In this document: piece by piece, positions 21,001 through 27,000 of the stretch
Layout of the letters: the number at the start of each line of letters is the position of its first letter
How positions within the stretch are numbered: position 1 is the stretch's first letter
Source: a virus
Taxonomy: Duplodnaviria; Heunggongvirae; Uroviricota; Caudoviricetes
Strand: one strand, 5' to 3'
IMG/VR virus record: IMGVR_UViG_2660238269_000009
Length of the DNA: 60,442 nucleotides
Made by a program: the position numbers

Positions 21001-24000
21001 CATTGAGCACGTCCTGCCACAGATACCAGGCCTCTGCCGAAGGCTCCCGCAGCACCACGCTGACATTACCCCATTCCGGCACCTTCACCGTTTTATGACG
21101 AAACCCTGACAGTCTGGCCAGCGCCAGCGTTTTCAGATCCTTTTTCATGATGACCCATCCCCTTATCCGGCGGCTGCGCTCACTGTCACGGTGCATTCAA
21201 CAGACGTCACACTCTGTGCTTTCTCTGCCGAATCGGTCACCACGCAGGTATATTTCCCCGCATCGGCGGACTGCGCACCTGGCTTACTGAAGGTGTCTGT
21301 CGTCTGCCCGTCAACCGGCTGACCATCCTTCTTCCAGGCGTATTTATACGGCGGCGTTCCCCCGTTGGCACTGACTGACATTGTCAGCAGCGCACCGGTA
21401 TTCACGGTAAGTGTCTTATCCAGATTTTTCACAAACGCCAGCGGTACCACAAAGGACACCGGTTTGCCTTTCAGACGCAGTGAGAACGTTGCAGCCACCA
21501 CGCCGTTGGTACCGGATGACCAGGTGTGCTGACGCACTTCCGCCAAGAATTTAAAGCCCTTACCGGACGGAAACTGCACCTTAAACGCATACAACGCGTC
21601 ATTGTCATAGGCATCACGCAGGGCGTTCTGGGCCTGATTCAGATAAAAATTACCCGACATGGAAATCTCGGACGACGCCCCCAGACCGTTGATGTTCTCC
21701 TGCTCTGTGGAGCAGAGCGTGGTCACATCAATATCCTGTTTCTGACCGGCGGTGAACTGGACTTCCTTGATGGTGCAGTCCAGGCGCAGATATTCCGCCT
21801 TATCCATAGTTTCAGCAGTCGCCGGGGCAGATGAAATCATCACCTGCGTCAGCTGTGAGCGTTCATACAAAGCAGACATTCTGCCTCCTGATAATAAAAA
21901 ATCCGCACGCGGCGGGGTATGGGTTTTGTAGAAAAAAGAAAAAGTCACACCGTGACCTGAAACTCCAGGGTTGCACGGTAACAGCGGTTTTCCGGAATAT
22001 AGTCCTGCATTTCACTGACGGATCCCGGGGCCAGCAGCATTATGGCTTCACGGGCGTCCTGACGTATCTGACGCGCCTGCGTCACAGTCCCGGCATAAAC
22101 GTCTATCTGCACCGCCACTGAGGACTCCGCCTGCCCGCCCATCACGTCCGCAGACACCGATGAAATCAGGCTGAAAACCACCCACGGAAGCGCCACCGAC
22201 GGCCTGCCATCCAGCAGGGGGACCACATACGGGTACACCTGCCCGCCGGCAAGATGCGCCAGATGAGGATACAAATCCGCCTCCGTCATCGTCTCAGTAC
22301 CTCATCAATGGCCCGGTTCATCCGCGCAATCGCCACCTGCGCTGCCTGTTCACTGCGCACATCAAACGCCGGGCGCACAAACGGGTGCGGTGGCATATTC
22401 ACGGTCCCCATTTCCACAAACCGCCAGTAGAAAGCATTGCGCGGGTTATCCGCCTTCATGGTGTTATCGCTGTTACCGGTGTCCGGATTAACACCACGGA
22501 TATGGACACCGGATTCCATCCCGCCATCGCGGGAGCGCCGGGAAAGGACCACCACATTGCGGCGCAGTTTTCCCCTGCGCACCGGTGCCCGTGACACCAC
22601 TTCTTCTTTCAGCACATTCGCACCCGCACGGGTTGCCTCACGCAGCACCCGGTTATTTTCCGCACCACTCAGAAGCTGCAAATCGCGGCTGATGTCCTCC
22701 AGCCCCGAAAAATCCAGCAGGGTTTCGATCATTTTTCCCCTCCCAGCCGACAGAGAATTTCCAGACGTCCGCCGGTCTCATCCGGCACGGGCAGCCCGAC
22801 AACGTTCAGGATCCGGTCACGCCATGGACCACTCAGCACATGAAGTCGTGACGCTGCCGTGATTTCCCGACCGGACTGACCGCGCACCCAGATGCGGATT
22901 TCCGCCTGCGCCATTTCCGCACCGGACTGCATCCGCTCCCGGCTGCTCCTGCCACGGATATCCGCATGAATTTTCCCGCATGACACCCATTCTTCCGTCA
23001 TTTCTCCGGCAGCATTACGGGTTAACACCGGGTTCAGAACACTTATCATCTGTGTCAGACGACCTGCAGATATTGCCATTCCCCCTCCTCATAACACCGT
23101 CGGACAACGCAAATCGTAAATCAGCACGGAAACAGAAAACGGCAGCTCCCCCTGAAGCAGTTCTTCCCGCTCCGCAAGATCCGGATTCCGGTACAGCATC
23201 CCGGTCAGTCGCATGGCAGCCCCCTTCATCCGGGTTAATGCCTCGCCCGGGATCAGTTCACCGTCCTCACGAATCACTTTATCCCGGCTGCCCTGAATGT
23301 AGGCCAGCAGCACGGCGGTAGCCTGACGAACCTTCTCCATCAGCATGTCATCATCCGCGTCATGGTCGACACGCAGATGTGCCTTGATCTCTTCCAGCGT
23401 CAGTAATGCCGTCATTTTCCGCCTCCTGCATCCCGCCCACGTTTTGCAGCCAGGGCCCAGCCTGATGAATGAGCTTCTCCGGGTTTATCACCGGTCATAC
23501 TGTTGCAGTGCCACAGCGAGCCCCCCCACGTCACCGTATCGCCGGGGTGGTAGGTTTCACCGGCTCTGAACACACCGCGGTAGAGCATCACCGGCAGGGA
23601 AAATGTTTTTTCCGTACGCTGGCCACTGCTCTGCCGGACCACCACAGAGAACAACCGTTCACCCGTCATGCTGACGTCAATATCTGCCACCCCGTCAACC
23701 AGGCATTCCCATCCCCGCATCCCGTGCGTTTTTTCATACGCCCGCCAGAGTCCGCCCTGGTGTGTGGCATACGTGCCCCGGGGAAAGGATTTTTGATCGT
23801 CAATGGCAGGGAGTATTTCCAGTGCCGTGGCATCACGCCCGTCCTGCGGAGCCGGCAGGGCACTCACCGCATCCAGAACCGCCTTCTGCAGAACATCGGG
23901 ATCATAGTCACGACCATCACGCGGAACAGGAATATGGCTTACCGCCTCCTTCACCATCTGCTCAAGCATCGGACGCACATCATCCGGGGTGATACTTTTA

Positions 24001-27000
24001 CCGTCTGCCGGCTGCGGAATATTTGCGACTGCATCATTCACCGCCTTCTGCAGTACTTCCGGATCGTAGTCACGACCATCACGCGGAACAGGAATATGGC
24101 TCACTGCCTCCTTCACCATCTGCTCAAGCATCGGACACACATCATCCGGGGTGAGACTTTTACCGTCCGCCGGCTGCGGAATATTTGCGACTGCATCATT
24201 CACCGCCTTCTGCAGTACTTCCGGATCGTAGTCACGACCATCACGCGGAACAGGAATATGGCTCACTGCCTCTTTCACCATCTGTTCAAGCATCGGACGC
24301 ACATCATCCGGGGTGAGACTTTTACCGTCCGCCGGCTGCGGAATATTTGCGACCGCATCATTCACCGCCTTCTGCAGAACATCGGGATCATAGTCACGAC
24401 CGTCGCGCGGAACAGGAATATGGCTTACAGCCTCCTTCACCATCTGCTCAATCATCGGACGCACACTATCGGGAGTAATACTTTTACCGTTCGCCGGTAC
24501 CGGTATTTTCCCGACAGCATCATTCACCGCCTTCTGCAGAACATCGGGATCATAGTCACGACCGTCGCGCGGAACAGGGATATGGCTTACCGCCTCCTTC
24601 ACCATCTGCTCAAGCATCGGACGCACATCATCGCCCGTCACGCACTTCTGTAATACCACAGACAGGGAAGCCAGTTTTTCTTCAAACGTTTGTGCCTGCG
24701 CGGCTATTTTCCCCTCAAATGTGCGCTGTAAATCCGCCAGCACTGCGGAAAATTCTTCACCCAGCGCACGGATAATGGACAGTTCCCGTTCCGTCATTTT
24801 CGCAGTATCCCCCCTGAACATCGCCTTCACCGCATCATGCTCTGTTTCACTGATTGCCTTATTACCGTCAGATGCGCCGTCAGGCGGTTGCGCTAAGGCC
24901 GTTTTCCCGGTCGACGCGAACGGATCCTCACGGGCATCACGACGGGACAGCGCCTCCAGACTGTAGTTCTGCTGCTGAAGATACAGTGCATCACCGCCGG
25001 CCAGGGGCGGCAGGTTCTCCCGTTTACGGGCCTCATTGGGCGTGAGAAGCGTATTTTTCACCGCATCCCCCAACGTTTTCATGCGCCGCTCACTGTCCAT
25101 TCTCAGCAGCGTGGTGACATCAAATTCCGTACTCTCGTTTTCCCCCGTTTCCAGCGCCTCATCCAGTAACAGTTCAATGGACTCAATCAGCGTCTGCAGG
25201 CACTGGGAATAATACTGCTGCTCCAGCGCCTCCACGTTGTCACTGGAAGGCGGTTGTCCCACGCCAATCTTGTAGGCCGGGACACGGAACACCGAACAGA
25301 CAATTTCAGCGGTCATCTTCAGTTGTTCCACCGTCTGCGCATCCACCGGTGAAAACGTCGTGGGGTTGTATTTTGCCCCGTTGCTCAGAATGGCCGTTTT
25401 CCCCGCATTTTCGCCTGTATACCCGCTGTCCCAGTTGCTCTTCAGTTTTTTCGCATTTTCTTCCGTAATACTGCCGGGGATCTCAATCACCCCGGACGGC
25501 CTGCCGCCATTTCTGAAAAAAGACGTCGAATTTTCCTGAATATGATGCCCCTGCGTGGCCGCCAGCCCGGCGGCATACACCGGCGGCAACCCTATAAGCG
25601 GATGAAAAAAACAGTTAAACCGATCGTGGATCACTTCCCGGGCAGGCACCGTCACCGCCTCAGTGATCCCACAGTTCCGGTCCGGCGTGATGCGGTAGAA
25701 CACCTCGCCGTCATCCGCCACCAGAGGTTCAACCCGGTTCCAGTCCAGAATACGCAGTTCTTTGATCTGCCCCCGGGCATTACGGATTTTCAGCACCACC
25801 GTATTGCCGTGACGCAGTTTGGCGTTCAGCCACAGTTCAAAAAACTGAATGCGGTTCTGCTGGGCATTGGGGCGACGACAGAGGCGGGCAATATCCCCCC
25901 GGCGCGTTTCCCTGCGTATCCCATGCGCATCTGTCTGCATAAGACGCAGCCGCATTTTGGCGATATCCTGGGATATCAGCGAAATACATGCAAACACCGC
26001 ATGAAAGGAGAGGACGGCTTCAGGATCGGCTTTCACGCCCTGCTGCCAGGCGCCGGAAAAGGGCTCAGCCACCGCCTGAAACAGGCTGGTCCAGCCCGCC
26101 TCTCTTACGTCACGTCCTGATTTCTGGTTTTTTCGGGTTCGCCGTAAAAGGTTCCACATTCGCCATGCTCCGCATCACGTTTCTTTTTCTGACCTGCCGG
26201 ACGTCGCACCGTGATGTACTCCGCCTTTCCCAGGCGAACCAGCACCTCCGCACACGGCTGTGCCACATCACGGATATCCCCGGCCCGGGCATCATGCGTG
26301 CCCTGCAGATATCGGATCTTTGCCATAACCTGTTACGGGAGGCGCACGCCTCCCGTCCTCCTTATCAGACTCAGCCGCCGGACGCACTGCCGTAGTTCAC
26401 TCCTGTGATCACCGCCACCGCCGCGGTACGGCGACGACGCCAGTTGATCCAGCGCTCCGCACGGATGGCCACGCTGCCTGTCTGGAACATGGAAACCAGC
26501 TCCACCGGCGACGGCGTGGTACTGTCGCCGGTCGGCTCAGACTGCATTTCCAGTGATGCCTCGCGGGACATATCCACTGCCACGCCGCCGTCATCCGCCA
26601 GATAAATATCCGGGGCATTCACCAGCACCAGCTGGTCACCCACGTACTGGGAGACAATCACCGGCAGCCCCTGGAAGGAGCCACCCAGCAGGGTCATGTC
26701 CGGGTATTCTTTCTGACCCAGCGCATTTTTACGCATGGACAGCGCCAGGGCATTGGTGCTGGACATCAGCCAGACCGCACCGGTGGGCTGCAGGTTTGCT
26801 GCCACAAACTGTCCAAACGCCGCCTCTGCATCCGCATCCGGGTTACCGCTTGATGCCGTGCCCTTCACATCATGGGTGATGGACGCCGGGGAGACATCTG
26901 CCACCGCCGCTTTTTTCGGGTCCACAAAGTCTGTATCCAGACGCGCCACCACCGCTTCCGCCAGCGCATTACGGACCAGTGCATCAGCAGCCGGACTGGA

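Follow-up and report, generated by a model that had tools for sequence, protein, structure and literature searches.

Portal proteins of the HK97 family, such as HK97 gp3, are about 400-480 amino acids (aa) long. Directly downstream of portal genes lie those coding for the MuF/gp7 proteins, for which binding to the portal within the phage head has been proposed and which vary in their C-terminal part (PMC5576092). In the E. coli prophage analysed here, the 60,442-nucleotide (nt) IMG/VR virus record IMGVR_UViG_2660238269_000009 (Caudoviricetes; hereafter the window), the head module encodes a 915-aa open reading frame (ORF), of which aa 1-454 constitute a full-length member of the HK97 portal family, while the remaining residues appear to be the product of another gene. 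This ORF is probably an in-frame fusion of two neighbouring head genes, the portal gene and a second gene (hereafter the partner gene, aa 455-915), which are ancestrally, and still usually, separate. It is identical to the RefSeq protein WP_044860845.1 of E. coli strain 2013C-3181, annotated as 'phage portal protein', and both split and fused versions of the sequence are already deposited in the databases.

The same span is annotated in BP-4795 and Stx1_14040 as two coding sequences, of 454 and 461 aa, which overlap in the tetranucleotide ATGA. Alignment with these two sequences reveals a sole frame-changing difference, in that the window carries a run of six guanines (G6), within CAGGGGGGAT, in place of five (G5). 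In the G5 allele the portal ends with AMFRGILRK at the TGA of the ATGA and the second gene begins at its ATG, while in the G6 allele the frame reads through, the start methionine of the partner becomes residue 455 and the ATGA is left intact. Fusion through a missing stop codon, which the original prediction named as what would refute it, did not occur; the TGA is retained and the extra G in the G5 run shifts the frame past it. Slippage from G5 to G6 in the AGGGGG motif moves the portal frame by one base, skips the TGA and joins both proteins. In E. coli this G-run is itself the Shine-Dalgarno (SD)-like motif of the partner gene, and it is slippery because of the synonymous codons AGG GGG. Over the whole gene, the window is 91-97% identical to Stx and lambdoid E. 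coli phages and about 62% identical to Salmonella phage FSL SP-016.

An exhaustive HMMER search with aa 455-915 recovered 5499 homologues. Standalone proteins (about 170-860 aa) account for 148 of the best 150 representatives, which share less than 50% identity with one another, and a portal domain is found in only two. The standalone proteins start at a methionine equivalent to residue 455 of the window protein, the closest of them beginning with MNERELS.IKALGEEF, which corresponds to residues 455-470. What the original prediction had named as its own refutation, a separate downstream gene that has become fused here, is thus essentially what these homologues show. A scan of one genome per species with a six-sequence alignment of the C-terminal domain (a first alignment was too diverse to be used) identified 42 loci, 40 of them complete, in Enterobacterales, Pseudomonas, Delftia, Variovorax, Marinobacter, Rhizobiales and Qipengyuania. 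All 40 share the gene order prohead protease-major capsid protein (MCP), portal (445-484 aa), partner (167-1145 aa) and gp6-like adaptor, and in every one the portal and partner are separate ORFs, so that the single portal protein with a C-terminal extension originally proposed is not borne out. At the 29 junctions examined, the two genes overlap by 1-16 nt, and a purine-rich SD-like motif (AGAGGA, AGGGGG, AAGGAG or AAGGGG) precedes the partner start by 5-11 nt, within the last codons of the portal gene. In the enterobacteria the overlap takes the form of the ATGA stop/start and the portal C-terminus reads RG(I/L/F)LxK-stop. Given these separate ORFs with a conserved overlap and SD-like motif across species, the two-gene, translationally coupled state is ancestral.

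On the converse reading, the long ORF would be the genuine portal gene, as both the original prediction and NCBI annotation take it to be, and the G5 alleles would be pseudogenes carrying a frameshift. The NCBI Prokaryotic Genome Annotation Pipeline (PGAP) annotates the two-gene G5 allele in NZ_CP024479.1 (locus 1292-3876) as one 'frameshifted' portal pseudogene, and the long form is modelled by PHROG 2271 and many RefSeq entries. This reading is scarcely credible in the face of the split arrangement in all 40 other-species loci, with its overlap, SD-like motif and conserved portal end, and of the standalone state of nearly all partner representatives. The portal family models, moreover, stop at about aa 382-388 and none of them (Pfam, TIGR01537) covers aa 455-915, which hence do not qualify as part of the portal family, and the infectious phage BP-4795 carries G5. 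As a result of the fused allele having become the reference, the NCBI pipeline flags the ancestral two-gene form as a pseudogene. Standalone partners in Variovorax, Pseudomonas, Acidovorax and Enterobacter likewise go under 'phage portal protein' or 'gp6-like head-tail connector protein' without containing either domain, and PHROG 1289 bears the same wrong portal label. The names given in public records vary and are for the most part incorrect. For homologue P0337 the name 'gp6-like head-tail connector protein' suggested a partner-adaptor fusion, but the name turned out to be wrong. Such mislabelling inflates pseudogene counts and can bias calls of prophage intactness in genomes of enterohaemorrhagic E. 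coli (EHEC).

The fused allele is a real and common natural variant, neither an assembly artefact nor a one-off. Scans of IMG/VR for the exact patterns found G6 in 41 contigs and G5 in 83, while the junction is present in 1245 of 5426 complete E. coli genomes, at 2909 places in all and up to seven copies per genome. Across 84 junction sequences (the window and 83 related loci), G5 and G6 are both found with the same 45-nt haplotypes. When 600-nt flanks are compared, three identical backgrounds carry both G5 and G6, and G6 is also found on backgrounds that differ at 20-69 positions from any G5 sequence. Phage 2851 (EP2851_54) and prophage YYZ-2008 (gp54) are both G6, with ORFs of 859 and 861 aa, respectively, and the split state is seen in BP-4795 (ORF58/ORF59), Lys8385Vzw and Salmonella phage FSL SP-016 (SP016_00160/00155).

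The prophage might nonetheless be decaying, and its fused allele either a lesion that abolishes function or an error in sequencing the homopolymer, with only the G5 form functional. The two-gene form came first and outnumbers the fused one two to one, homopolymer runs are error-prone, and defective lambdoid prophages are numerous in EHEC genomes. This explanation is improbable given the 41 independent G6 contigs in IMG/VR, the many complete genomes and the phage records of 2851 and YYZ-2008 that share the allele, and the fused clade conserved independently in Pantoea. The 915-aa frame and its neighbours also remain intact just as often as their counterparts in G5 loci, with no difference between the alleles in this respect for the adjacent MCP, adaptor, head-closure, gp10 and gp17 genes. 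The fused allele thus seems to be tolerated or functional rather than lethal.

Phage 2851 was reportedly found to be infectious by Strauch and colleagues in 2008. Several points nevertheless count against the overall reading. The products that are made, whether fusion, free portal or free partner, and the site of the partner in the virion are predictions from sequence. Some of the single G5 sequences that sit on G6 backgrounds may stem from misassembly. Finally, the plaque-forming phage phi330 (PV189401.1, locus 3801-6549) carries G6 together with a 2-nt CT insertion 70 nt upstream, which truncates the portal at 444 aa and leaves the genes un-fused. The manually Sanger-sequenced phi330 record has three more single-base indels in the C-terminal domain, which suggest sequencing errors there. 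A related Stx2c Pankowvirus lysogenises MG1655 (PMC12029490).

The recurrence of the G5/G6 change on identical 600-nt backgrounds raises the further possibility that the G-run, or the A-run that some alleles carry ahead of the stop, serves for regulated recoding or phase variation and sets the ratio of free to fused portal within one phage population. Some G5 alleles contain CTGAAAAAATGA; here the two frames would be fused by a -1 slip on the A6 run that precedes the stop. The A6 variant, however, occurs in only about 11 of the 84 junction sequences, and no conserved slippery heptamer of the type used in the lambda G/GT -1 frameshift was found across the relatives, other genera carrying AGAGGA, AAGGAG and the like, without a homopolymer, in place of the G-run. 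Tested as a contingency locus, the three identical flanks do carry both states, but the G5-6 tract is short and the minority states are represented by one or two contigs each. Regulated switching at the junction is very unlikely.

A second group of fusions is found in Pantoea genomes and metagenomes, where homologue P0217 and eleven relatives (61-69% identical to P0217) are fused proteins of 1096-1249 aa. These comprise a portal, different repeats (LPEPEPLPDI-like) and then the same C-terminal domain, and the genes show the same synteny. The linker preceding the internal methionine is hypervariable in both sequence and length, while the partner-start methionine (M[IL][TS]ERE) is invariant in all 11 proteins in which the junction can be aligned, which suggests that the internal start is still used in these fusions. 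Comparison of the sequences indicates that this clade represents an independent and older fusion, and that the fused state may persist under selection. Other C-terminal additions were observed among related HK97-type portals. P0287 and P0288 (about 790-800 aa) carry C-terminal Zeta_toxin and AAA_33 domains, while others end in collagen repeats (P0284, P0285, P0289 and P0291) or a Tape_meas_lam_C domain (P0283).

The composition of the window ORF was confirmed by ORF calling, Tandem Repeats Finder and Pfam, in agreement with the original description of a 915-aa ORF with an HK97 portal domain and five 54-aa tandem repeats of 162-bp period (Table 1). Pfam Phage_portal (PF04860) matches aa 54-382 (window 25014-26000; E 7e-81; score 272 bits, cut-off 39.1) and TIGR01537 portal_HK97 covers aa 1-454 (E 2e-105; score 352 bits, cut-off 112), the portal part closing with a low-complexity tail at aa ~400-454. 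Tandem Repeats Finder reports a period of 162 bp with 4.7 copies and 92% matches at 23878-24632, a pattern far beyond chance. The three inner copies are identical to one another at 149-157 of 162 nt, and the first and last are more diverged (120-144 of 162). Each 54-aa unit consists of two related 27-aa halves (helix-loop-helix-loop), in which a predicted helix of 13-17 residues is followed by an IPxPxDG(K/R)D loop. Only this helix/loop pattern was taken from the single-sequence AlphaFold model of the partner part, a poor model with a predicted local distance difference test (pLDDT) score of 45. The further residues described beyond the repeats are indeed present and measure 134 aa.

Table 1. 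Coordinates of the fused ORF, its parts and its neighbours in the window.
Feature	Position	Strand	Basis
Fused ORF, portal and partner gene in one frame, 915 aa	23412..26159	-	ORF call
Portal part, aa 1-454	24798..26159	-	Pfam and TIGR01537
G6 run (AGGGGGG) creating the fusion; SD-like, 11 nt upstream of the partner ATG	24809..24814	-	
ATGA; ATG = Met455, ancestral partner start; TGA = ancestral portal stop, now out of frame	24794..24797	-	
N-terminal region of partner gene, aa 455-511 (MTERELSIIRALGEEF...), predicted long helix (low-confidence model)	24627..24797	-	
Five tandem 54-aa units, 162 bp each, aa 512-781	23817..24626	-	Protein-level parsing
Conserved all-beta C-terminal domain with CBM5/12-like fold, aa 782-915, 134 aa	23415..23816	-	
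Head-tail adaptor, gp6-like, Phage_connect_1; start overlaps fused ORF stop by 4 nt	23089..23415	-	
Prohead protease (Peptidase_S78)-HK97-type MCP fusion, one 645-aa ORF directly upstream of portal	26371..28308	-	

Repeat number was expected to vary between isolates, and a comparison of copy number among E. coli prophages bears this out. The partner part measures 245, 299, 353, 407, 461, 515 or 569 aa, lengths that rise by exactly 54 aa each time and correspond to one to seven units, in G5 and G6 alleles alike. Other lineages have near-identical repeats of their own, as in P0122 and P0337, and total partner length across species extends from 167 to 1145 aa. Such a pattern is the apparent signature of ongoing unequal recombination and concerted evolution under little constraint on length, in which unequal recombination would expand and contract the 162-bp repeats and so change the length of the helical middle part. 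Many 'partial' portal proteins in the databases end inside the repeats, which break short-read assemblies and are thereby a source of misassembly. Their number might also serve to type Stx prophages and other lambdoid ones.

The partner gene is a member of a large family with a predicted N-terminal helix, variable helix-loop repeats and a highly conserved beta domain. From the Rhizobiales to E. coli this C-terminal domain is as conserved as the portal and the MCP, and it shows the characteristic small beta fold of CBM5/12. The CBM_5_12 match in the window protein is sub-threshold (aa 865-886, window 23502-23567; 18.8 bits against a cut-off of 26.2), while that in homologue P0125 exceeds the same cut-off at 29.8 bits. 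No curated family in Pfam, NCBIfam or PHROGs covers the partner; a newer Pfam entry, PF28083, appears in precomputed tables. Matches of the partner to TetR_C_35, DUF4244 and other families were rejected as repeat artefacts, and a sequence search of the PDB returned only designed helical-repeat proteins with marginal E-values, which do not represent homology.

From its genomic context we infer that the partner is a portal-associated head protein. The C-terminal crown of the portal faces the capsid interior in solved portal structures. Viable fusions to this inward-facing C-terminus have apparently arisen on at least two occasions, which would place the partner at the portal crown inside the head, although the case for its acting there is tentative and falls somewhat short of an even chance. 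The partner would normally sit at the crown in a position analogous to that of SPP1 gp7/MuF and, in the fused allele, could still be translated on its own from the retained SD motif and ATG. The architecture of the protein counts against an internal site; a helical or collagen-like shaft with a CBM5/12-like tip resembles external phage fibres and fits a location inside the capsid poorly.

This fibre-like architecture gives rise to the main competing explanation, in which the partner is an external fibre or decoration (a neck whisker, head fibre or capsid decoration) whose tip binds carbohydrate and which is made free from its own start. Fusion to the portal would then be no more than tolerated, the appended copy being shut up in the head to no purpose. 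We consider an external fibre possible but less probable than a protein at the crown. Its tip is the most conserved part of the partner, the opposite of the pattern usual in host-recognition fibres, and fusion to the inward-facing portal C-terminus has not only arisen more than once but persisted through 30-40% divergence. The available part of the phi330 description also makes no mention of fibres on the virions.

The natural fusions offer a Rosetta-stone hint of an interaction between portal and partner, and they show that portals can carry a C-terminal cargo of 50-90 kDa. The partners represent a large, conserved head-module family beside the portal, evolving as slowly as the portal and capsid proteins. 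It may even be speculated, with a doubtful chance of being correct, that the partners, which have more than 5000 homologues in Proteobacteria, constitute a new class of head proteins that is widespread and tethered to the portal, functionally analogous to MuF/gp7 but unrelated in sequence, whose conserved CBM5/12-like end would bind a universal ligand, such as the glycan strand of peptidoglycan, during or after DNA ejection. The SD G-run would, in E. coli phages, act as a heritable switch between the free and the portal-tethered form.

The protease-MCP fusion gene forms part of the same conserved head module as the portal gene, and its position before the portal is kept from E. coli to the Rhizobiales, with the protease and MCP split into two ORFs in a few loci (Delftia, Variovorax, Qipengyuania and Pelagibacterium). 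A 73-aa ORF without a family match (26105-26326, minus strand) shares 55 nt with the start of the portal gene. BP-4795, YYZ-2008 and RefSeq list it as a hypothetical protein, and a small ORF occupies this position in Salmonella phage FSL SP-016 too. In the tail module, between the genes for minor tail protein L and an M-like protein, lies a full-length OmpC-type porin gene (15492-16646, minus strand; Pfam Porin_1, E 6e-144). The receptor of the related phage phi330 is OmpC (PMC12502783), so a prophage-borne porin variant could affect superinfection. The late regulatory region contains three clustered tRNA genes (41102-41353, minus strand), identified by ARAGORN as Arg-tct, Arg-tcg and one with a CAT anticodon (Met), the last annotated as Ile by RefSeq in a related strain, followed downstream by a SASA-family carbohydrate esterase gene (34937-36919). 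This tRNA/esterase layout is typical of Stx-type phages, but the annotation of the related strain shows no stx gene. From about 13.2 to 48.9 kb the window matches E. coli 2013C-3181 at 99.8% identity, and it lacks the two IS66-family insertions of that strain (near the tail-fibre and gpJ genes), which makes it a related but different genome. The idea that the prophage is visibly disrupted by insertion sequence elements was dropped, as those IS66 insertions are absent from the window.

As regards described systems, the locus shares with HK97-type phages the neighbouring adaptor, head-closure, gp10-like and tail-completion genes, but differs from the usual HK97-type order in that the protease-MCP fusion gene precedes the portal. 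No paper on a split or fused portal, or on the partner gene, was found in the literature, the papers on 2851 and BP-4795 being outside the scope of the search. The sequence records of BP-4795, 2851, YYZ-2008 and FSL SP-016 label the second gene 'portal protein' or 'hypothetical', and none explains the split/fused difference. Agrobacterium phage 7-7-1 tail fibres (PDB 9rkv) have a terminal domain of the same fold class and a repeated shaft of variable length. Unlike these fibres, the partner is encoded in the head module, is coupled or fused to the portal and has a tip conserved across very different hosts. The closest likeness in position is to SPP1 gp7/MuF; the partner gene lies immediately downstream of the portal in all 40 complete loci, and the C-terminal add-ons in this portal lineage include zeta-toxin and collagen modules, the portal-toxin fusions P0287 and P0288 resembling MuF polymorphic toxins. 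No Pfam match to a MuF domain (PF04233, PF06152 or related) was obtained in the window protein or ten homologues. The partner, moreover, is built of a helix, helix-loop repeats and a CBM5/12-like domain, and its C-terminal domain is conserved whereas that of MuF proteins is variable. What is encoded here is probably an accessory head protein, adjacent or fused to the portal, that lies outside the MuF family.

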